From Raillietiella orientalis (Eukaryota), in assembly GCA_036172245.1 (NCBI GenBank), contig JAYWIR010000019.1:1612001-1676000 (forward strand): 64,000 nucleotides of DNA, in the 5' to 3' direction. Below, one piece after another: positions 18,779 to 61,370 of this stretch. Numbering within the stretch: the stretch's first letter is position 1; each line of letters starts with the position of its first letter. The notes under the pieces were generated by a model. The model ran no database searches. It saw nothing but the letters and a program-made list of their open reading frames with translations, and was not told the origin of the DNA. The position numbers were made by a program, and so were the translations under genes.

Positions 18779-19889
18779 GCAGGAAACCACCACTTCCTGC
18801 GCATTCGAGGCGGCGGTGCAGCGTGGAGTTCACCCCGGTCCCCGCGCACTCGCTATGGGGGAGAAGGGGGCAGCGCCCCCTCCCCCCACTCCGCCCCGCC
18901 CCCTGCGCCCGATCTGATTAACCCGCGGATGCGCTTGGCGGCGGCGGCGGCGGCTGCAGCAGGCGGGCCAAATTGTTGGCGCTCGGGGCGTTTCCGCTCG
19001 GGACCGTGAGAAGCGGCGGTTGGCATGGGAACGGAGAGGCGCGCGGTGCGGTGCGGTGAGGTGCGCGGTGCGGGCGGCGAACGACCGCGCCGGGGGAGCC
19101 GAGCTTGCTCGCAGCCCCATTCGTCCATCCGTCCCTCTTCCGGTCCCCTTCCCTTCTTCCCCGCCCCATCGAGGGGTGGGTGGGATGCACCTTCCCGCCC
19201 CCCTCCCCTCTTCCCTTCTCCTCTCTTGCCCCCTTTGCTGACGATCCCTCCTCCTGCTCTGCCTGCAGGTCGCCGCCGCAAGCTCAGATGCCCGGTCGGC
19301 GGCGGCCCGGTCGGCGGAGTCGGCAGCGCCTCCGGCGGCGTGGGCAAGAAGCAGCGGAAGGCGCGCACGGCGTTCACGGACCACCAGCTGCAGACGCTGG
19401 AGAGGAGCTTCGAGCGCCAGAAGTACCTGAGCGTGCAGGACCGGATGGAGCTGGCCGCGAAGCTGCAGCTGACCGACACGCAGGTCAAGACGTGGTACCA
19501 GAACAGGAGGTACGGCCCGGAGGCACGCGCGCGACCTGCGGGACCCCCCACTGGTGTTTCCCAGGACCAAGTGGAAGCGTCAGACCGCCGTGGGCCTGGA
19601 GCTGCTGGCCGAGGCCGGCACGCTGGCCGCCGTCTACGGCGGGGGCGCCTCCTACGCCTGGCCCCTGCCCGCCGCCAGCACCGTCGACCTCTACTATCGC
19701 CATCACCACGCCGCCCAGCCCCTGCCCAAGCCCCTCTCCTACAGACTCTACCCCTCCGCCTGGGGTCTCGGCCCCCTCTTCGCCGCCCAGCCGCTTCTGG
19801 GCGGCCACGCCCACGGCCGCAAGGCGGCTCCCGCCGCCACCTCGCCACCCGTCCTTCGCTCCCTCGCCAGCGACCGCGACAACACATGA
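18323..19889 (+). CDS. BarH: BarH-class homeobox transcription factor (BarH1/BarH2/BARHL family), 3 coding exons
   Basis: Exon 1 (18323-18581) has the eh1/FIL motif FMIRDIL and an acidic DE run. Exon 2 (19269-19509) encodes [55 protein letters not shown] 55-nt intron (19510-19564) precedes exon 3 (19565-19889), [19 protein letters not shown]. Thr47, Tyr49 and the post-homeodomain [12 protein letters not shown] are Bar hallmarks. Splice phases are consistent. Candidate AATAAA at 20428. Confidence 0.96.
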
Positions 19890-20865
19890 GAGCCAGACCG
19901 CGCCCCCCGCCCCATCCTCACCCCCTGGACCCCGGCCTGCCCTCCCCGGCCACGTGCAACCGAGCCAGGAGGAGGGGGACCGACCGGACGTCGTCAGGGG
20001 GCGTCCACAACATCCGCTGCTCCCCGGGCGCTACCCTCGGGCCGCTGCGGCCGCCCGCCGATCTCCGCCAGGGGATGAGGCCTTCTTGCCCACCAGAGGA
20101 CAGCCAGCTGACCCCCGCGAGGGAGCTTTGGGAGCCATTCCCGACGCATTGCCCCGGCATCCCACCTGCGGCCTCCCTTTCGGGCGCCCGACGGAGGAGA
20201 GACCCCCGGCGCAGGAGAGACCAAACCCCCTTCCTCCGCAGAAGGAGAGCGGCTGCAAGACGGACGTCACGAGCGGTCGGCCCCGAGGGGAGGGGGAAAG
20301 GGCCGTATCGGAGTCCTCCCCGAGGGGACGAGTCCGCCAGAAGAGGAGGAGGTGGCTGCGTTTCCATGGCGCGCGTGCGCGGGAGGAAGGGGTGGCTTCC
20401 CCCGCTGGGCAGCCGCGTCAAAAGGTCAATAAAGTCGGCTGGCCGCTCAGATGGCTCGACCCTTTCGGGCCTTCCGAGTCTCCGGGGCAGCGGTCTTCCG
20501 GGCCTCCGGAGTGGTGTCTGGGGACTCCGACACCATGACGGCTCCTGGGTCCGGCGGGAGAGGAGGAGGCGGAGTCTGCAGTCTTGGACCGCGCACCAGG
20601 GGAGAGAGCCTTTCGTTTCGGTTGGCTCCGCAGTCGACTGCGCTCCTCCCTGGGAGGGCGCAGAGGAGGTTTGAAGGGGGGAGGTGGAAGGGCAGAACCC
20701 GCCCCTCACCGGCCTGTCCTGTGCTGGTCGCCTCGAAGGGGGCAGTGGTGGCGACTGGGCGCTCATGCCCGCCTCAGTCGCTTCCTCTTCCGCGGGGGGC
20801 AAGATGGCATCCTCGGGAGCGAAACCCTCCATTGCCACGGTGTGACCTCGCTAGTGACCTGTGAC

Positions 20866-41842: not shown

Positions 41843-42616
41843 TTAATTCGCCGTGATTTCTTCTTCAATTCTCGTTATAATATGGTCTAAATCTTCGGAT
41901 TTGAATATTATAATTTTTCGATATGGAATGAGATTTTCATCTCCATCAAACCAATTTCCAGTTAGTCCTGCGTCTTTTAAATTCCATTCACATGATCCAA
42001 TAGCAAATTCATCAAAAATTTCTTCCTCTGGATTGGACCAAATCACGTCTGATGATCTCTGATCCGAAGAATCCGTCTCTGCTTTATAAACTTTGCAAAT
42101 AATGATAAAATACGCAAAACTGAACTGATGTCCATTTGCATCTAAATCTTTTTGCAAACTTCTCAAGAGAGGAACTGATATTTGCAATGGTATGTTAACA
42201 AACCGTTCGTTAATGAGAAAACCCAATTTTCGATTTACATCATTTAATATGTCGGAAAGAACTCCCTTAAAAGAACCAGGACTCTTCTGGAGCAACAGGT
42301 CCACCAACTGTGATACACAGGTCAAATCTGAATTGTGTTGTAGGTGTACAACAGAGGAAACTGCAAAAACGCATTCATCACTCTCAGTAGGATCTTCATC
42401 CAACTGCTTTAAGACACAACCTATGCCTTTTTGATGTATCAAAGTTTTGGTAAGATCATTCAAATTGATTTCTGTTCCCAGAAACACTTGCATAAGGAGA
42501 TTTCGTACACCGTGGAAATATATTTCTCTCATCTCTACAGCTTCAAATTCCACTTCAATATTACTGCTGGAGTAAATTTCCTTATTTTTCTTCTTTTTTT
42601 TTATTGCAGGGGCCAT
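41843..42616 (-). CDS. BCCIP: BCCIP / Bcp1 homologue, single coding exon
   Basis: 257-aa ORF with IEVEFEA, FHGVRNLLMQVF, IGCVLKQ, VFAVSSVVHL, LGFLINERFVNIP.QISVPL, WSNPEEEIF and PYRKIIIF, which are characteristic BCCIP-family motifs. Confidence 0.93.
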   Translation of the reverse strand: MAPAIKKKKKNKEIYSSSNIEVEFEAVEMREIYFHGVRNLLMQVFLGTEINLNDLTKTLIHQKGIGCVLKQLDEDPTESDECVFAVSSVVHLQHNSDLTCVSQLVDLLLQKSPGSFKGVLSDILNDVNRKLGFLINERFVNIPLQISVPLLRSLQKDLDANGHQFSFAYFIIICKVYKAETDSSDQRSSDVIWSNPEEEIFDEFAIGSCEWNLKDAGLTGNWFDGDENLIPYRKIIIFKSEDLDHIITRIEEEITAN

Positions 42617-43727
42617 TACGTTGATGTATTAGTTACGGGACTCTTGATTTGAAATGTATCCTTAATCAGAAGTCAAAAAAAAAAAAGTATATTAACACTC
42701 CAAACAAGAAAACGGGTTAATAACCATCATTCGTGATTTAGTGGCCACTCAACTGAGAGCATTTTCAAGGTAAACGGGGAAAAGCAAAATTATTCGAGTT
42801 TTCTTGAGGTGTTATTTTCACTCAAGAAAGCAACAAATCAAGAAAAACCAAAGGGCAGGGCAGTCTTTTCTACGCAACGTTTGTCCGTGTAAGGAGATTT
42901 TTCACGATTTTTGATGCCGCTGCATCTGCCACTCCACTTCTGAAAACCCACGTACTGAGAAAACAACATGAGCACGTGACGGATCAACAAATTCACGGTG
43001 CTCCCCGAAAAGCAGGGTTGCAAAGTGCGTCGTTCTCCAGTGGATATTCAAAGTACCTGAAGATGGAAGAGTGTTTCATTGTAGGAACTCAAGATACTGA
43101 AAGACCTTCGGTAATCTCTGCATATGCATGGGCTCGCATGACTATTCATCAAACGGTTTTCAAAAGAAACCAGTGACGAAAATTTTCTGTTAAAATTTTC
43201 CGTACACCTTGTACGAAAAACATCCTTTCCAAAATAGCATAGTGCAAAATATATAATATATATATATGTGGACAAGTATTCTTGATGCATTTTAAAATCA
43301 GTAAAACTGAATGATGCTGAATGTAGAGGAGAATATTTAAGACAAAAGGGATTCTTTCAGGAATTAATATGCAAATGCACTCTTAGATGCATAATGATTT
43401 CAAGTAAAAGAACTTTACGCAAAAATTCCCTTCACTTGCCATTTGAAAGATTTCTCGATGCTGGAATTTACCGTGTTTTTATGCTAGAAAAAACAAAATA
43501 GCAAAAGTAATACTTGGAAAAAGAATTGTTTCTTTCGTACAAAAACGTAAGCCTCAACAAAAAGGCTGATAAATAGGTGAATTTCCTGAAGCAAGATTCA
43601 TGCACATCGAAACATATCCAACATACAAAATTACAGGTTACTTTACATTAGTTTTTTGAAGTCTTTCGTTTGTTATAATTTTTTCCTTTGTTTCCTTCTC
43701 TCTCTCCCTCCCTCTCTCTGTCTTTCT

Positions 43728-45589
43728 TTCTTCTTTTTAGATCATTTGTGTGCATTTTCTCAGATATGAGGGCCAAAGAAGTCGCACTGAATGCAAGTTT
43801 GCATAACTACTAGGAAAATGTCAAAGTATCCTAATGTCAAGTAGGTATTTGCGAAGGAGCATATGTCAGAGCTACTTGCATCTTTTTATCATAGGCAATG
43901 AGACTGTACTGAGGATAATGGAATTATTGTTATAATTTTTTTAAGCGTAGCTCCTATCGAAAAAAGGGAAAAAAATGGCAAAAAAAGCCTCGTGCATGTT
44001 CTCTTCATTATTTAGTTGCACATGATATTTGTAATGTCGATTATGGAGTTTGTCTTCTACAGGGTTTCGCTGATTATTTTCTTCATCCCGACTTCAAGTG
44101 TTTTTTCAGGATGCGACTCGCGATTAGCAAATCCACGATTCATCAGAGGTACTTATCACGCAAATTCAGCAGCATCTTACCGCCGACGGCGCACCAGGCA
44201 AGGTTTGTCGAGAGGTCATCATTTTTCCTCATTCAATTCGAAATGAATCGCAGTGTTTATGCCCTCTCTCGTGCTCACTAAACACCGAAGCTGACTGACT
44301 GAAGGAGTCTTTATTCACCTCTTGTTTGAAAACCTATCCTTCAGTGATATGAACTCCAGCCTTGAGTGTTCATTTATCTATTTATTTTGAAGATAAATTT
44401 TCCTTCCCACTCGCTTCTTCACTGTGCCACTACGTCAGATTTGGCTTTCGAACCACGCAACATCTATGCGGATCTTGACGTCCTAACCATCTAGAAAAAA
44501 AGAGACAAAGAAAGAAACCGAACCCCCCCCCCCTGCAGTACCTCTTTTCACGAAAAAACTGAACCCTGAAAGTGAACCCATCAAACAGAATGTTCGTGGA
44601 TACAAAGCAAAATAAATTTCACCTCGCTGGTGCAAAGAGAAGGCTACGCCCGCGACACGCAGGTTGGGCAACTCTTGAGCAACCATCCATCCTCCACAAT
44701 ATCTCTCCTTTGCCTTTCCTTTGCGAGCTGTTTCACTCGTCAGGAAACATTTGGGCGGCACCTCGCCTACAGGGCAGTGGTCACTCTGTTCGGGTGCTAT
44801 CATTTTCAAAGGAATGCATTTGAAAACGTCATCAGTAAATGCATCTTCAAGTTGACCGTAATGGATTTAAAGATAAATGACGCTGCACATAAGCGAAAAT
44901 CTGCAGATCCGTTGCGAAAAGCGATGAAATGTATACATGAAAAAATTAAAATGTATACCAAGGTATTATTAAATGTTAAACAGATACAGGGCTGCATGCC
45001 TTATCTTGAAGAGAACTCTCCGTCTCTCTTAGGGGGCATTTGAATTTGCTTTTATGGACGCAGAAGACGACGAATCGCACTTCACTCTGATAGTTTGCGA
45101 CGAGGGAATTCTTGATTTTTGCCGGTTGAGCTCTTGAAGAAGAATTTCGGCATCACCGTGATAAGTACCTCTGATGAATCGTGGATTTGCTAATCGCGAG
45201 TCGCATCCTGAAAAAACACTTGAAGTCGGGATGAAGAAAATAATCAGCGAAACCCTGTAGAAGACAAACTCCATAATCGACATTACAAATATCATGTGCA
45301 ACTAAATAATGAAGAGAACATGCACGAGGCTTTTTTTGCCATTTTTTTCCCTTTTTTCGATAGGAGCTACGCTTAAAAAAATTATAACAATAATTCCATT
45401 ATCCTCAGTACAGTCTCATTGCCTATGATAAAAAGATGCAAGTAGCTCTGACATATGCTCCTTCGCAAATACCTACTTGACATTAGGATACTTTGACATT
45501 TTCCTAGTAGTTATGCAAACTTGCATTCAGTGCGACTTCTTTGGCCCTCATATCTGAGAAAATGCACACAAATGATCTAAAAAGAAGAA
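43728..45589. repeat. Long inverted repeat: arms 43728-44160 and 45157-45589 (433 bp each) around a 996-bp spacer
   Basis: The left arm TTCTTCTTTTTAGATCATTTG...GGTACTTATCACG is the reverse complement of the right arm CGTGATAAGTACC...CAAATGATCTAAAAAGAAGAA, with no mismatch seen by eye. The ORF track shows identical N-termini at 44016(+) and 45301(-). Confidence 0.95.
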
Positions 45590-46798: not shown

Positions 46799-47423
46799 CT
46801 TACGCCTCCAACAGTGCTTGGTGTAAACAGACGACGTTTCGATACAGCACCTAAAAAGTCTGGGGTAAGACTCCCTCTGTTTCGTTGGTCCATCCTGCTG
46901 AGAAACAAATCAGGGAGCTCTGCGACTGCTTTTTGTGCCTCTTTTCGGGGCGATTGGCAACCCGGAAGCTTTCGGCTTGCTCATCCTGCAACGGCACCCC
47001 CCTAGGCTGTTGACAGACTGTCCGATTGTTGCGTCCGGCAGACTGAACCATACGCTGCCGCTCCCCGAGCACTCCTTCAGCCACCCTTTCTCAGAGGCGA
47101 GTTCAGAAGCTCAGGAGACTCGGAACGGACGCTCCTTATGAGCGCATCCTTCATCGTCGAAAGAAGGATCGGCTAACCATCGTCTGTCGATCATCTGGCC
47201 CGCATTAGCATGACGCCATGACTCTCTCCTTTCGATGATCCAGACACGTTCTCGGACCCCCCTCCCCCCAGCGTTGTTTTCCTTCTAGCCTTTTTTTTCT
47301 TCTCGTTCGCCAAGTGCTGAAGAACCATTCGCCTCCTTAGGGGCGAAGGGAACGAACAAAACTCTTTGATACTGTCCACGCCACCTCCCCCCTTTTCCCC
47401 GAGGAGTGGCGTGGACAGGGTTC

Positions 47424-47612
47424 ATCTCTTGTCACTCCTGTGTGCTATCAATTGAAATAGATGTGTTCTTATCAGCTTAATATCTGATACATCCCCCATC
47501 TGGTGGCCAGTATATCAAACTACTTTTTCGATGTGGAGGGGATGCTTGGAGCTTGCTCCTCTTCTGTTCGCGGGTTGACCCAGTATTGCAGTACCTCCGG
47601 ATCGGCCCACCT
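47424..47612 (+). ncRNA. U2: U2 snRNA-like gene (divergent variant or pseudogene)
   Basis: Contains TGTTCTTATCAGCTTAATATCTGATAC (stem IIa), GGAGCTTGCTCC (stem III) and GGGTTGACCCAG-TATTGCAGTA-CCTCCGGATCGGCCC (stem-loop IV with the U2B''-binding loop). The start ATCTCTTGTC resembles canonical ATCGCTTCTC and lies 40 nt before TGTTC, as in human U2. The 5' domain and the Sm site are divergent. Confidence 0.9.
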
Positions 47613-47879
47613 ACCCCCCATTACAGGAGGATCGAAAAACAAATGCAAAAGGAGATCCATGTTCCTCGTTCTCTCGGGAGGGAGCTGTTTCTGTCCGCTT
47701 TGTGGGCAAAGAATAATCTCTCCAAGCCTCGCGTCCACTTCCAAGCTAGTAGTTCCATGTACCGGCCGCGAGATGGGTGTCGCATGAGATAGGAAACTGG
47801 TAGGAAAGGATTGTTTTTGATTTCGCGATTCCACTTCGTGGCATAGCAACCTACCGACTAGTCGGATGGCTCCCCCGTG

Positions 47880-48335
47880 TGCGCGCAACTCTTCTTCAAT
47901 TTGTAGGGGGCACCCCGGGAGGGGACCACCCTATGAATTCATGAAGGTTCCAGTGGAAAGAGTCCGTTTTCTTTTCTCCCTTGAGAGTTTCCTTCGAAAC
48001 CCAGAAAGGATCGTCGTTTCCTCCTCTGAAGAGAGCCCCGAAAGGACTCTTCCCGATTTCTCTGAAGGGAGTTCTGACACTCTGGAGAGACGACCCCCCG
48101 AAAGAGGTATCAGCTGTCAGCTCCATGGCACGGCTCCATATTTTCACCACAGGGGGGTAACCCTGAGGGGAACCGACTCTCCTTGATGTCCTGTAAGGAT
48201 CCCAGAGGGACGTCTGACTCCCGATCCCTGTCATTCAACGGGGGCATCCGGCTTCCACCGTATCCGAAGCCAACCAAGACCAACCAGCATCATCTTGCTG
48301 GGGGGGGGGGGGAATCGAAACCCACGACAACTGTC
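47880..48335 (-). mobile_element. Dispersed repeat, tRNA-derived SINE-like family (copy lacking the tRNA head)
   Basis: Shares GGACCACCCT.TGAAT, CTCTGAAGAGA.CCCCGAA.GGACTCTT, TCAGCTCCATGG, ACTCCC.ATCCC and CAACCAGC.TCATCT..GAA.CCCACGA with the copies at ~60970 and ~62340. Confidence 0.7.
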
Positions 48336-49964
48336 GCCACGCGAGGAGGAGACCGCAGCCGCACTGCCTCCAAGGCGGGGGTGTTGTGATACGGCAGGAC
48401 TCGAATGCTTGGGATCCACGCACAGCACTTGGCTGCTGTTCCCGCTGGCATTCCCTTCAACAACGGAACGCCTCACTCTTTTCCACGTCTATGTCATAGC
48501 GATCCTGAGCGCCATCTGCCAACTAGTTCTGCATGGCATCACACAGACCCTTCGTATCGACGCTTCACCACGTGAACATCTCTACGACTATCGTGACTCC
48601 CACATTGATCATCGTCATCGTCGTCGTCATTTAACAATGTTGCTACGCAGGATTTCCAACGTCCTCTGCTGCTCCCTTGGCCTTACGGGCGTTCGGAAAG
48701 CCGTGCTTTGTACGTCTCCTTCCGGAGGCCGCGCGCCGTTGCGCTTCCTGGCAAAGAAGACTCTGTCAGTGCAAATCAACGGGAAGAAGAATGGTGAATT
48801 TGCAACTCTTCTCAGTTCCTCTCCGCATGCCCCTTGGGGATGTCAGTGCCGGCAGCAAACCTTGGCAACCACGTTCTCTCCCCGCCGCCTCCGTCTTCGC
48901 ACTCGCCGTGGAACCGAGTTGTTACCAGCATTCGTATACCTGACCAGCACAACGAGCTGAAAGGAGTGACCTCGCATGCGATCTGCGTTTCCGGTGGAAC
49001 TCCTTTTCACGCAATCCAGAATTTTCCTTCCTGTTCTGTTTCTTTCTTACCTGACGCAAGAACGGTAGATGGAACCGCAAAGACTCCCTGAAGGGATGCT
49101 GCTGCTCAGGCGGCTACCAGATCGAGGACTTGCTGATTCGACGACCGCTGTGGAATTCTATCAGCAGCCGGAGGTGTCCCTGATTTCCTTGGAGACGACC
49201 TGGAGTTCCCACGCGTTCCCATATCTCCCGAGTAAGCGGCAACTGCCGAGGTGTGGTGCTGAGTCGGGGGTGAAATCGGTTCCCTGTTCTTCTTGTTTGC
49301 TCGTCTGTGTACCGGACGACGACTCGGACAAAAGGCAGGCTACGACCAATGCATGCAGCAAAAACGCATACTGCATACTGCCGGAGCGTTGGGCACTGCT
49401 AGCGTCGTCAGTAGGGACGGGCAAACGCAGCTGGCGTAACCAGTGGGAATCCCAACCTCGTCAGTATAATGGCCGAGAACCTGGAATGCCGCTCCCAAGT
49501 TTCCAGGTCACCGACGTTGACTCGGACGGACACCGCACCCCAAGTTGTTGGGGGGTGGGTGGGAGAGGGTTCGAAGAGCAGCGTGGTTTTCTGCATCTCT
49601 TGCTCCCGAATACAACTCTTCAGGAGGTCAGAAAAACTACCGGCATGCTGCAACGTGAAGACGGGCATCCCGCACCGGGGGAATCAGGCAAAAAAGTTGG
49701 CAGCCGTTGCGATTGCAGCACCACGTGCGATGGGTTGATGGTAATGCGTCTGGTGCAAGGACCCATAAAAGTTTTTGTTTTTGTTTTTTTTTTTTCCTTC
49801 CTTTTCTAGACTCTCAGACAGACAGCCAACTGCTTAAAACACCGCACTGCACAGCCGTGTCACCGCAGACGAAAATCTCGCCACTCGGACCAGGGTGCCC
49901 CACGTCCTTCTGGGGCCCGGAATCCTGAACGTCGAAATGCTTAACGGTCAAAATCCCCCAAAAA

Positions 49965-51000
49965 TCATCAAAAATAAATATATATGCTCATTATATATAT
50001 TCATGTACAGATTAATATGTATTTTTTATGAAAATTATAAAAAATAAATACATATGTTTATCACATGTATTAATATGATGAATAATGTGTTTATTATATA
50101 TGTTATTGTACATAGATTGATATACAGGTTAATGCATATTGTCAAGACCATAAAAATTAATATATATATGCTTATTATGTATATCAAGATACATATATTT
50201 ATATACACACTAATATAAAAATTTAAGTCAACATACATGTTTACTAATATTTATTAACATACACATTTTGATATAATTAATAATATGTGTTTATATATAT
50301 CATAACGATTTCAAAAAATAAATATGCGTTTATTATATATATATAAAATGAATGTGTAAACTACAAAAATATAAAATAAAAAAATAACGGTGACAATTAA
50401 ACAGTGGAGACAAAAAGAATTTGGTATTTCCTTTTCCTGTCACTTCAGCATTCAACGAACGAAAGTGTCTCAGCAAATGATGAATTCCACTTTCGGTGTA
50501 CTTTGACAGTTTGGTAAATTTATGTCTCATAATTCAATAATCATATATTCATTTAATACATACTTAGTATACACCCAAATATATATGTGCATTAATATTT
50601 ATAATAAACACGTGCAGTTATTTTTGCAATCTTTAATTCATGTGTTAATATATCATTTTTTTATGCTAATGATACGTATGTCAATAAATATTAATAAATA
50701 TGTATGTTCAAATAAATTTGTATGTGAATCTCTATATAAACACACATAACAACATGTATTTATTTTTCATACTATTTATATTTTTACATATCGGCATGCA
50801 TATTTATATTTTATACCCTTTCAAAACATGTATGTTAACCTAAATGCAATTATACATATTAATGTGTAATAAACATACTATAAATTATATTAATAACATA
50901 CGTGTTAATAAATGTGTATGTTAAAATAAATCTGTATATGAATCTATGTATAAATAAACAAATATACATATATATTGACAGAGGCATGAATATTGATTTT
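49965..51000. repeat. Extremely AT-rich block with internally repetitive, oppositely oriented arms (foldback-like)
   Basis: AAAATAAATATATATG.TTATT-like modules recur at ~49972, 50041, 50152 and 50314. TACATAGATTGATATACAGGTT (50109-50130) matches the reverse complement of 50929-50950 at 20/22. A direct repeat occurs at ~50697 and ~50912. Confidence 0.6.
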
Positions 51001-52249: not shown

Positions 52250-52400
52250 CGAGGTCAACCAGCGTCGTCTTACGGGGGAAACTAGAAACCCACGATGCAC
52301 CCATTTCTCTGGCGTCGATCCTCCCCGGGAGGGATTCGAACCCGCGACGTTTCGCACTGCGCGCGGAGGTCGCAGTCGCACGGCCTCCTCGAGGCGCTGA
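52250..52400 (-). mobile_element. tRNA-derived SINE-like head
   Basis: Minus-strand B box GTCGCGGGTTCGAATCC at ~52332-52348. The flank GGTCAACCAGCGTC.TCT..GAA.CCCACGA..CATTTCTCTGGCGTCGAT is shared with the copy at ~62910-63000. Confidence 0.7.
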
Positions 52401-52906: not shown

Positions 52907-55900
52907 TCACACAGAGCACCTGCCAAGCAGAGGGTCAGTGATGGCAGCGACGAGCAGGGAGCACGGCAGCAGCAGCAGCATCCCAGCGACGAGGTGGAGC
53001 CGAGAGGCCGCGCCCGTGGAATGTAAGAGAGACAGCTGGTTTTCGGAACCTGGAGCGGTCGACTTGGCCGGGCAGCCCATCCAGAAAGGTGCCGAAAGGG
53101 AAGGCGTCGGGTTTTTCACCCTCATGTACAGGTCGCTGAATTCCCAGAACACTCTGTCCTTGAAAAAATACGTCTTCCCTGGAAGAGGACGGGGAAAAAG
53201 AAAACAAATGGGTGAACCCTCCTTCGGAAAAACCGGGAGCGCAAGAAGAGGGCGCCGCCGTTCAAAGCAAAGGGTGAAGGGCTGGGAGCGGTGCGGCGGT
53301 GCTCGAAGCCGACAGCAGCAACGGCGACGACGCCGGCAGGACCTCGTCGGTCTTCACGTCGCAACGGAGTCCCGGCGAGACCGAAGACCGAGGTATCTTT
53401 TAAGAACACCGCACGAGTGCCCTCGCTGGCGAAATGGGGCAACGATAGGGGACGTTGCAAGCAACTGGCCGCGTCCCGAGAACGCCTCTGCGCCCAAAGG
53501 AGAGAAGGGGCGCCCTCCCGGCTTGCCTTGTTTCCCGCAAAAGTGCGCGCACGGGAGCAACGGTGACGCACGAAGCAGCGCGCACGCGCGTCACTGGCAA
53601 CGACTAGAGCGCAGTGCTGCCACAACACCCTGCACAAAAAAAACCTCAACGAATTCATGAGCGTTTGCGAATTAAGCACACATAGTTACATTATTATTAT
53701 GCTATTATCCATTACAATAATATTATTAATCACAATATAATTTATCAACTGACATCGTAAGTATAATTACATCATTATTATATTACTGCCAATTATAATA
53801 TCAGTTACGATACTATTATATTATTATTGATCAACTGACATCGTAAGAGCAGTAGCACGGGAAGCACGCAACGGCAACATGAGTGAAAAAGAAAAACAAA
53901 TTCATGCTGCGCCCGCTTCCCAATCCTAGCGACGGTGGCCGCCCTATACGCGTCTTCCTCGGATCGGCCGCAGACAGCGGCGAGTCGCAACTCGACCTGC
54001 TCTGTCCTTAGAAAACCCCGGGGCGGAAGACACACTAGAGTGCCGAGGCGTTTGACCAGAGTCCCTCAGGGTCCGCTTCGCGAGGGAGGTGAGGTGGCCG
54101 AGAGAGACACGAAACAGCTGGCGACCGTCGGTGGCGCTCTAGGCGTCACGTGCCCTTACACGAGTGCATCAGCGGTGTTGGATGGGAGGGCCGGTCAAAA
54201 CAGGGGAACCGCAAGTGCCGAGGACTAGCTGGTTGCTTCGCCTCTGAAGGAGCTGCTCCCCGTGAGGTTTAACAGGGATCCTGGGATGCGAGCAATGATG
54301 ATGGAGCGTTGAGGGAATCGAAAGTTTTCGAGAAGCACGTCGGAAGAGAGATGGAGCACGCAGCGTTCCTGGGAACAGTGAAGCTGATGACAAGAGAAAG
54401 GAGGAGAGGAGTGCGGAAACTTTCCCTTTCATTTGTCCGCACGCACACACTCCTTTCTTTTTTTTTCTTTTTTTTGCGCAGCTGCACGAACAAAAGTCCA
54501 ACAGTGCGAGCCACAGTGACTCGACCCTTCCATTTTGCCGGACGGCAGAGTTGCCCGGCACGATTCCCGCAGGAAGCTCTCTGACTTCGGCGCCTGCCCA
54601 GCCCCCGAACTCTCCAAGGACCAGGCAGGCCGGCGAAAGGCCGAGAGCGGCTGGAGGCCATTGGCGTTTCGCTCGCGCGCCTTTCCCTGTTGCCCACAGA
54701 GAGAGCACCCGGCGTTCCAGAAGAAGGCGTCGATCGAATGGATCCGCTGCTTTCCTTCCTCCCCTTCCTCCTACCCCCTCTCGGGAAGCTCGAACGTCCC
54801 CAAAAGAACCGCGCGCTCTCGCACAATGGGGCGGAATCGGCTGAGGGAAGCGCCGGCAGGCGGCGGCGCGCGAAAACGGTCGCCAAGGGGAAGGCGCAAG
54901 CCGCCGTGCGGTCGTCCTCAGCCGGCCTGGGTGGCGCGGCTGCCGCACATCCCACCGCTGCGGCATAGCGCGGCCGCTTCCCGGCTCGCGCAGGCGCGAT
55001 CAGGCCGAAGGGGGACCGCGCACGCGCGCGCTCGACAGACGCGGCGGAAGGAGCAAACCCTTTTACCGGGACCGAGAGGAGGGAGGCAGCGAGCTGCGGA
55101 AGACACGCAAAAAAACACAAACAAAATGCAGCCCGCGAGGCCGCCGCATCGAGGGCGCCCCGTCCAGGGGTCGGGCGTGTCTATTTTTAGGGTGTGCGCC
55201 GGCGAGACCGAGGCAGCGGCCTAACCAACCCGCCGGCCTGACCGCGGGATCCCGCAGAAGGATCTCCGCTCTCTCTCCCAGCACCCGAGCGCCCTCTCCT
55301 CCGCCCGACGCGGCGGCGGCAGGGAGCAGAAGCTCCCGGTCCGGAGTCTGACGAGTTCGACAACCTTGTGGGGCGAGACAGGGACCGCGGGATGACTATT
55401 TTTAGGTGGCGGCCCGCGTGCCAAGCGAACCGGAGCGCGGCTGTTCTTGAAGGTGGAAGGGCCGGGCCTGCTCCTTTTCCTCTTCCCTTCCTCCTCCTTC
55501 CTCCCTCTCTTCCTCTTCCTTTTCTATTCCTTCTTCGCTTCCTCCTCATTCCTCATTCTCCTCTTCTTCCTTCCCTTCTCCCTCCGCATGTTTGATGGGA
55601 TGCTCCTCCTCCCCTCCCCCTTTCGTAAAGAGCCTTCGAACCAAACGGCTCGCCTGCAGCGCGAGTTGGGGAGCGGCGGCGGTGGCTTCGGACGCTCCGG
55701 CCAAAGGGCAAGGGGAGGGGATCGAGAAGGGCAAGTGGTGGCGGCGGCCTCCTCCTCCCAAGGACGAAGGCGCGCCCGTACCGTTCTTGTACTGGAACAC
55801 GGAATCGATGTAGTAGGGGACTCCTCTCCACACGGCCATGTCCCGAGGGTAGTCCAGTTCCACGCGTCGCCTTTTCTCATCGAACCTGCAGAGGGAAGAA

Positions 55901-58083: not shown

Positions 58084-58222
58084 CCTCGTTTTCCTCATAA
58101 GCTGCGTGTACACGCGCAACAGTGACGCGAACAGCGCAACAGCGCGCACGCGCGTCACTGGCAACGACCAGAACGCAGTGCTGCCACAACACCCTGGACA
58201 AAAACCTCAACGAATTTATGAG
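58084..58222. repeat. Dispersed intronic repeat, copy 2
   Basis: Same-orientation match to 53526-53661. Confidence 0.85.
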
Positions 58223-60969: not shown

Positions 60970-61370
60970 GGGGCTCACGGAGCTCTTTGACGCTGCCCTG
61001 CGCCACCCAGGGAAGCGTTTAACCCTTCAGGTGGCGGAAAGCAAATCCCGGAGAGACCACCCTGTGAATCCAGGGAGGACTCCGGAGGAAAGAGTTCCGT
61101 TCCTCTCGCGCTTGGTAAGGGGAACCCTGAAGAGGTCAACTTCCAATCCCGGCCACTCGCCGGGGGCAACAGGGGCTTTCCGACATCCATCAGTGCCGCC
61201 CCACCTCATTCCCGTGGTCCGACGAGTGTCATCCTGCGGGGGAAGTGGTGGTGGTGGTGGGGACTCGAAATTCCCCGTGTTCTCGGCGTCCGTCCTTCCC
61301 TGGGAGGGATTCGAACCCGCAACTCTTCGCGCAACGCGCAGCGGCCTCACTGCCGCCGCCAACTAAGACC
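60970..61370 (-). mobile_element. tRNA-derived SINE-like element
   Basis: Minus-strand head TAGTTGGCGGCGGCAGTG...GTTGCGGGTTCGAATCC (A-box-like and B box). The body GGCTCACG.AGCTCTTTGACGCTG and CCAATCCCGGCCACTC is shared with ~62340-62860. Confidence 0.75.

Follow-up and report, generated by a model that had tools for sequence, protein, structure and literature searches.

The window, a 64-kb stretch of DNA, harbours a U2 snRNA-like sequence on its forward strand (Table 1). This sequence matches the Rfam U2 model (RF00004) over model positions 1–192 with 91.0 bits, at a gathering threshold of 46 and an E-value of 8.7e-17, which is far beyond chance, and RF00004 is the sole Rfam family to exceed its threshold anywhere in the 64 kb. 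A permissive Rfam scan of the window recovered neither a second U2 nor a U6, and ARAGORN found no tRNA in it; the other matches of the permissive scan were sub-threshold miRNA families located on microsatellites and purine/pyrimidine tracts and were discarded as chance. The U2 origin claimed in a preliminary description of this DNA, which had been made from the letters alone, is borne out by the full-length match, it being understood that this score shows descent from U2, not function. The ORFs near the U2 copy (45.6–50 kb) have no Pfam match, and the region is therefore treated as non-coding.

Table 1. Features of the U2-like locus and its immediate flanks, in window positions.
Feature	Position	Strand	Remarks
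U2 snRNA-like sequence, full length relative to the Rfam model	47424..47615	+	RF00004; 9 non-standard pairs; MFE −46.8 kcal/mol, z +0.28
Scrambled 5′ domain (stem-loop I, U6-pairing strand, branch-point recognition region)	47424..47463	+	without GTAGTA; 3-nt gap between GCTA and TCAA
Stem-loop IIa block, equal to canonical U2	47464..47489	+	0/26 differences
Atypical Sm-site region ACTTTTTCG	47522..47530	+	letters read; 88-locus comparison
Stem-loop III inner stem and loop GGAGCTTGCTCC, intact, same as in the L092 family	47548..47559	+	
Stem-loop IV loop TATTGCAGTA, intact	47584..47593	+	
47-nt palindrome	47372..47418	.	ends 5 nt before the U2 start
3′ flank with 3′-box-like decamer AATGCAAAAG (47642–47651), L048-like	47642..47693	+	local alignment

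Elsewhere in the window, a BarH-type homeodomain exon lies at approximately 19350–19520 (+) within an ORF at 19010–20674 (Pfam Homeodomain, E 6.9e-21), in a block of 72% G+C; its likeness ends after WYQNRR, as at a splice donor. The BCCIP ORF at 41843–42628 (−), situated in a 38% G+C block, is intact and intronless (Pfam PF13862, E 3.3e-41), and insects supply the best of its 105 matches, none above 40% identity, which leaves two readings, a gene that evolves fast or a retro-copy. Judged by the homeodomain exon and the BCCIP ORF, the host is an animal and probably an arthropod whose lineage has been poorly sampled. A perfect (100%) inverted repeat of 433 nt, with arms at 43728–44160 and 45157–45589 and 996 nt between them, represents either a fold-back element or an assembly artefact. 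The stretch at 49960–51000 is AT-rich and full of degenerate tandem and inverted repeats, in sharp contrast to the blocks of 60–70% G+C found elsewhere. Finally, there are two pairs of dispersed repeats: one (52305–52385 and 61280–61360) is 70% identical and has a tRNA-like GGGATTCGAACCCGC motif, as a SINE derived from a tRNA would, and the other (53571–53640 and 58135–58204) is 93% identical.

Canonical U2 sequences for comparison came from a scan with the stem-loop IIa 26-mer of the window, which, with one degenerate base, is also found in at least 128 metagenome loci. Among the matches listed, 121 loci have 41 nt upstream, and 107 of these 121 carry the invariant GCTAAGATCAA...GTGTAGTATC. 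The remaining 14 of the 121 listed loci, which include L001, L045, L063, L071, L084, L099, L102 and L128, have a 5′ domain that is truncated or rearranged, with break points at approximately +19 to +40; upstream of these, the sequence is in most cases unrelated and in many A-rich, and that of L105 looks like a sequencing adapter. Such U2-like loci look like a recurrent pseudogene form of U2, and a ‘rebuilt’ 5′ domain like that of the window occurs in none of the 14 (among the matches listed). When the 3′ 126 nt were compared with the 100 listed loci that have at least 100 nt downstream, the nearest to the window among the matches listed were L027, L092, L048, L031 and L057, with 101–103 of 126 identities. 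All five share the CAGCTTAAT variant with the window and carry an extra A before GTGTAGTATC, a combination that we take to be the fly or arthropod form of U2. A variant-specific 22-mer gave no match in metagenomes, prokaryote genomes and viral contigs, collections that hold little arthropod DNA, and the 3′-end pattern gave none in genome contigs and viral contigs.

Inspection of 47100–47900 recovered all of the sequence features listed in the preliminary description at their window positions, and the 40-mer quoted there as human turned out to be identical to the 5′ 40 nt of the metagenome loci L006, L026 and L061. The U2-like stretch opens with ATCTCTTGTC. Between stem-loop I and stem-loop IIa the sequence reads TTGAAATAGATG and contains no GTAGTA, meaning that the canonical branch-point recognition sequence is absent, as initially proposed. 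The U6-pairing strand GCUAAGAUCAA of the helix I region is incomplete as well: GCTA (47444–47447) and TCAA (47448–47451) are kept, and the 3 nt between them are gone. This strand, spanning GCTA to TCAA, pairs with U6 and is part of the catalytic core of the spliceosome. In stem-loop I, 2 of 7 model pairs are non-standard or gapped in the Infernal alignment. The two small hairpins on which the suggestion of retained pairing was based do exist, one with a 3-bp CAC/GTG stem (CAC-TCCT-GTG, 47433–47442) and one with a 4-bp CTAT/ATAG stem (CTAT..ATAG, 47445–47460), yet the 5′ 43 nt fold at only −3.8 kcal/mol (z +0.15), a value that 97 of 200 shuffles equal; the same stretch of L092 reaches −10.0 kcal/mol (z −2.04). 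The rebuilt 5′ domain thus has no more structure than shuffled sequence, and a functional appearance of this domain is not supported.

Changes along the copy were mapped at the columns in which 28 unique canonical relatives, drawn from 34 loci of this U2 type, are conserved to 80% or more. Among these columns, the window departs from the relatives at 21 of 41 in the 5′ domain, at none of 26 in stem-loop IIa and at 6 of 67 in the 3′ part—i.e. at 21/41 versus 6/93 in the remainder as a whole. In the 3′ part, three blocks (26, 12 and 18 nt) are unchanged, and the conserved blocks, 66 nt in all, contain no change, as compared to 21/41 in the 5′ domain. When each relative was left out in turn, 26 of the 28 showed no difference at any of the 41 columns of the 5′ part and 0–16 differences at the 67–70 columns of the 3′ part, which places the 3′ part of the window inside the normal range. 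L004 and L039, the remaining relatives, each have one difference in the 41 columns of the 5′ part and differ at 40 of 68 and 37 of 70 columns, respectively, in the 3′ part; they are, by these counts, 3′-rearranged. The preliminary description had stated both that divergence is concentrated in the 5′ end and that it does not resemble uniform decay; the first statement is confirmed by the contrast between 5′ domain, stem-loop IIa and 3′ part, and in view of the 21/41 against 6/93 changed columns uniform decay is rejected.

Upstream of the copy, the 150 nt preceding the U2 start were indistinct from background when locally aligned with those of 10 canonical loci (z −1.2 to +1.6). Since the within-family controls of this method were themselves weak (z 1.4–2.6), a position-specific matrix took its place. 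In the nearest family (6 loci), the shared boxes at −59..−26 score 16.5–36.0 bits in a leave-one-out analysis; the window scores −28.0 bits at the same position with the family matrix, although the motif is lineage-specific and the PSEA of the host itself may differ. Nowhere in −300..−1 does the window score above 0.4, a value attained by 30% of random 300-nt stretches. Outside the nearest family, 37 of 38 canonical loci are also negative with the family matrix and only L008 is positive (21.0), so that the promoter test is informative only for a window of the L092-like lineage. The promoter-like boxes at −59..−26 are shared by L031, L038, L048, L057, L079, L092 and L008, whose flanks are otherwise unalignable. 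They consist of AACACCYGTTAGA..TGAAT and of TGATAT approximately 30 nt upstream, and they are probably the PSEA and PSEB of this lineage; for fly Pol II snRNA genes, the available text of one study places PSEA at approximately −40 to −60 and adds a PSEB (PMC4227766).

The place of these promoter boxes is taken in the window by a palindrome that spans −52 to −6. It has perfect arms of 13 nt (47372–47384 and 47406–47418), or approximately 16 bp when a bulge is allowed, and its folding (z −3.76) is matched by 0 of 200 shuffles. The palindrome is unique in the window and belongs to no repeat family there: its arm motif has four matches at up to one mismatch, of which the two exact ones are its own arms, and 2 of 100 shuffles reach four. 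An origin from a Helitron or MITE was considered and rejected, as the arm motif is not repeated and neither a terminal CTRR nor a target-site duplication is visible by eye. A third, partial copy of the arm in the U2 5′ domain (GGAGTG/CACTCC), also noted by eye, was not recovered by a repeat search and was discarded. The palindrome may mark a rearrangement junction.

Despite the extent of the changes, the first 40 nt retain a trace of U2. Their global alignment to the canonical 41-mer has 25 matches in 44 columns and a score of 4; 29 of 5000 shuffles and 7 of 4974 window 40-mers score as high, and the rarity of this score argues that the 5′ 40 nt are homologous but heavily changed. This bears directly on the alternative of a 5′-truncated U2 copy, in which true homology would start at approximately +41 or +33 and the first ~40 nt would be unrelated flank with a chance likeness to U2; the locus would still be a pseudogene. 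Truncated copies are the common broken form, given that 14 of the 121 listed loci lack the canonical 5′ domain and most of these have unrelated sequence upstream, and this alternative is also favoured by the upstream flank, which is unlike any U2 promoter region, and by the 5′ domain, whose structure does not rise above chance. However, 4971 of 5000 shuffled sequences and 4967 of 4974 40-mers from the window align less well with the canonical 41-mer than these 40 nt do; the likeness sets in right at +1, where 8 of the first 10 bases are the same, and retains GCTA and TCAA in order; the Infernal alignment extends to model position 1; and the A-rich stretch found upstream in most listed copies of this type has no counterpart in the window. 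A simple truncation is therefore unlikely, and a U2 pseudogene with a scrambled rather than a missing 5′ end accounts better for these observations.

Downstream of the 5′ domain, the stem-loop IIa sequence is identical to canonical U2 at 26 of 26 positions. The same cannot be said of the remaining stems: the Infernal alignment contains 9 non-standard pairs among 45 model pairs (two in stem I, three in IIb, two in III and two in IV), leaving stems IIb, III and IV not intact, as compared to one to three such pairs over the whole RNA in all 12 canonical relatives with printed alignments. In stem-loop IV, a G-to-A change together with a 1-nt deletion disrupts the inner stem, under the loop TATTGCAGTA. 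A separate count arrived at 10 of 45 non-standard pairs for the window, including one gapped pair and a U.U pair shared with relatives, and at 2 of 45 each for L027, L031, L048, L057, L090, L092 and L110. Relative to L092, 26 pairs are the same, three are kept in spite of a one-sided change, six are kept through two-sided changes, eight are broken by one-sided changes and two are non-standard already in L092. The six two-sided changes point to descent from a working U2 outside the lineage of L092, and the eight broken pairs to a later loss of constraint. As to the global measures, the whole RNA folds at −46.8 kcal/mol (z +0.28) versus −75.4 kcal/mol (z −3.74) for L092, and the score of 91 bits compares to 158.7–193.9 bits for 22 distinct canonical full-length relatives and to 119.6 bits for the 5′-truncated copy L063.

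The Sm site, which had been described as atypical, is indeed so. It reads A-C-U5-C-G, to be compared with the consensus purine-A-U3–6-G-purine as quoted in the available text of a study on trypanosomatid U2 (PMC4950102). In the 88 canonical loci examined for this region among the matches listed, A-U5/6-G is present in 50, a C after the U-run in 16, a C before it in 6 and both in 1. Each deviation by itself is therefore found in canonical loci, whereas alteration on both sides of the U-run is seen in one of the 88 listed, and this sole locus is L039, which is itself rearranged.

At the other end of the copy, the gene-flanking sequence is better preserved. A 3′-box-like decamer, AATGCAAAAG, is present downstream of the coding region approximately 27 nt past the end of the Rfam match; the same decamer occupies the 3′-box position of L048, where it is somewhat closer in, and a close variant is found in L031. 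Local alignment of the window flank with that of L048, the best of 10 flank comparisons, gives a score of 18, which none of 3968 window 90-mers reaches (maximum 13). For reference, 3′-flank scores within the family are 19–30, with L110 and L090 at 11 and 8 when compared with L048. A BLAST search with the 1-kb flanks, in which U2 had been masked, returned only short matches at chance level among the 128 listed loci and none to the L092 family at E ≤ 50. The likeness to L048 is good evidence, though not proof, that the copy includes gene-flanking DNA and so arose at the DNA level, as a canonical-like 3′ flank argues for a copy of the gene unit and against a retro-copy. With homology running from +1 past the mature 3′ end into the 3′-box-like flank, the sequence indicates a DNA-level copy of the whole gene unit.

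We consider it probable that the locus is a promoter-less U2 pseudogene with a scrambled 5′ end. Mentioned as a mere fallback in the preliminary description, this reading is the better one: the branch-point recognition sequence and part of the U6-pairing strand are lost and stems are broken, and U2 homology remains, i.e. the copy combines the loss of elements needed for function with residual homology, by which snRNA pseudogenes are defined. The locus as a whole forms a gradient from an unalignable 5′ flank with its palindrome, through 41 nt that are half changed, to a near-intact remainder and a recognisable 3′ flank, as though a discrete event had struck the 5′ edge of the gene copy. This event may have been a local rearrangement, with the palindrome 5 nt upstream as its mark, that took the promoter and scrambled the first ~40 nt, conceivably by way of a junction with error-prone repair. 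Alternatively, an older pseudogene could survive in the 5′ part alone, its 3′ three-quarters having later been replaced through gene conversion by a working copy. Either mechanism would yield a promoter-less copy unable to recognise branch sites or to pair normally with U6. In the remaining ~150 nt, decay would have only just begun, and 6 of 93 changed columns, within the 0–16 range of the relatives, fit a recent loss of constraint rather than a long independent function. With weakened stems and no recognisable promoter, little RNA would be expected from the locus, and any transcript should not form a working U2 snRNP.

Some features sit less comfortably with a pseudogene. The divergence is strongly non-uniform (21/41 versus 6/93), and a rearrangement or partial-conversion step has to be invoked to explain it. 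The conserved protein-binding blocks, namely stem-loop IIa at 26/26 and the loops of stem-loops III and IV, are perfectly intact, a state that continued selection on the 3′ modules would also produce, and a 3′-box-like element is retained. Moreover, the promoter argument hinges on membership of the window in the L092-like lineage, and the 3′ flank drew no support from BLAST at E ≤ 50.

It is from these features that the case for an expressed U2-derived RNA would have to be made, in which the protein-binding modules of the 3′ part (IIa, III, IV and the Sm region) are combined with a new 5′ domain, be it as a specialised snRNA or as a decoy for U2 snRNP proteins. Such an RNA could well show divergence in the 5′ 41 nt next to untouched 3′ blocks of 26, 12 and 18 nt, a 3′ part within the canonical range (6/67 versus 0–16) and a retained 3′-box-like decamer, and there is precedent in human cells, where expression and incorporation into snRNPs can occur for copies that are annotated as pseudogenes, according to the available text of PMC8457000. 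Nonetheless, 21 of 41 positions in the 5′ domain differ, 9 non-standard pairs face one to three in relatives, the fold is no better than that of shuffles, the Sm site is altered on both sides, and in place of a promoter match there is a palindrome at the promoter position. The absence of the variant 22-mer from the metagenome, prokaryote-genome and viral collections points the same way, if weakly, as these are poor in arthropod DNA. An expressed RNA is hence improbable. This also applies to the earlier proposal of a specialised snRNA with a new branch-site or U6 specificity, or of an RNA with a new role, which finds no support in a 5′ fold equal to shuffles, non-standard pairs at 9 of 45 positions, changes in both Sm flanks, a palindrome where the promoter should be and a variant 22-mer without copies in the three collections.

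Within this scenario, a more specific version can be formulated: a transcribed and stable U2-derived RNA that keeps the modules bound by SF3 and U2A′/B″, has lost branch-site and U6 pairing, and acts as a decoy or competitor or as a scaffold for a new 5′ guide. The conservation mosaic of the locus (no changes in 66 nt of blocks versus 21/41) is the pattern expected of a decoy or scaffold, and we nevertheless rate this version as more improbable still. If it were true, an animal U2-derived RNA without branch-point and U6 pairing would constitute a new class of spliceosome-related regulator.

Highly improbable, in turn, is a lineage-wide change, whereby the locus would be the normal U2 of its species with another branch-point recognition sequence, as in trypanosomatids. 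The available text on Leishmania major U2 provides a precedent (PMC4950102), and the host does look divergent, its BCCIP ORF being at most 40% identical to any of 105 matches. Yet the nearest U2 relatives among the matches listed, including one with a similar 3′ flank, are all canonical in the 5′ domain; broken stems and a fold no better than that of shuffles are unlike a working RNA; the U6-pairing strand is partly deleted; and the source is an animal, with an ordinary BarH-type homeobox exon in the window. Just as improbable is a local error of assembly or sequencing by which a normal U2 gene came to have a corrupted 5′ end, since, even though a perfect 433-nt inverted repeat 2 kb away (43728–45589) and a palindrome with perfect arms 5 nt upstream are structures that fold-back read chimeras can create, the 5′ 40 nt show scattered substitutions and small indels instead of a clean junction, and the 3′ part is changed too.

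If the locus is a U2 pseudogene, it is of little importance in itself, being one more dead copy of a multi-copy snRNA gene. Its annotation should flag the copy as U2-like and non-canonical, and it should not be counted as a U2 gene. The more general lesson is that clustered divergence is not in itself evidence of a new function: a junction event would leave the same pattern, and so would partial gene conversion.

In comparison to known systems, the copy is closest to canonical U2 as represented by RF00004 and the loci L027, L031, L048, L057 and L092, with which it shares the full-length model match, stem-loop IIa at 26 of 26 positions and an identical stem-loop III loop, stem-loop IV loop and 3′ terminal block, as well as, in the case of L048, the 3′-box-like flank. 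It differs from canonical U2 in that it lacks GTAGTA, has a 3-nt gap in the U6-pairing strand and does not form stem-loop I. In addition, it scores approximately 100 bits lower, has 9 instead of one to three non-standard pairs, carries changed Sm-site flanks and is devoid of the promoter boxes of the family. With the 5′-truncated metagenome copies it has in common an intact stem-loop IIa and 3′ part and the replacement of the 5′ domain by non-canonical sequence; the difference lies in the upstream portion, which is mostly unrelated to U2 in the truncated copies, whereas the 40 nt of the window are detectably homologous from +1.

A naturally divergent U2 is found in Leishmania major, where, according to the available text of PMC4950102, UUAUAA replaces GUAGUA, the Sm site deviates from the consensus and stem-loop III is missing, and where the U2 sequence is conserved across 21 trypanosomatid species. 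The absence of GUAGUA and the non-consensus Sm site are thus shared with the window copy. On the other hand, the trypanosomatid RNA, as described in the same text (PMC4950102), is the only U2 of its lineage, is expressed, is common to 21 species and has no stem-loop III, whereas the window copy keeps stem-loop III, has broken stems and comes from an animal whose nearest U2 relatives are canonical.

Among animals, the human U2 variants (PMC8457000) and the fly U2 isoforms (PMC4291461) are likewise diverged extra copies of a multi-copy snRNA family, as far as the available texts of these sources go. For such snRNA pseudogenes and variants, expression is uncertain and some copies are transcribed, again according to the available portions of both sources (PMC8457000, PMC4291461). 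What sets the window copy apart is that half of its 5′ domain is changed. Furthermore, the classic human copies are described as retroposon-like, whereas the homology of the window copy extends into its 3′ flank, which argues for a copy made at the DNA level.
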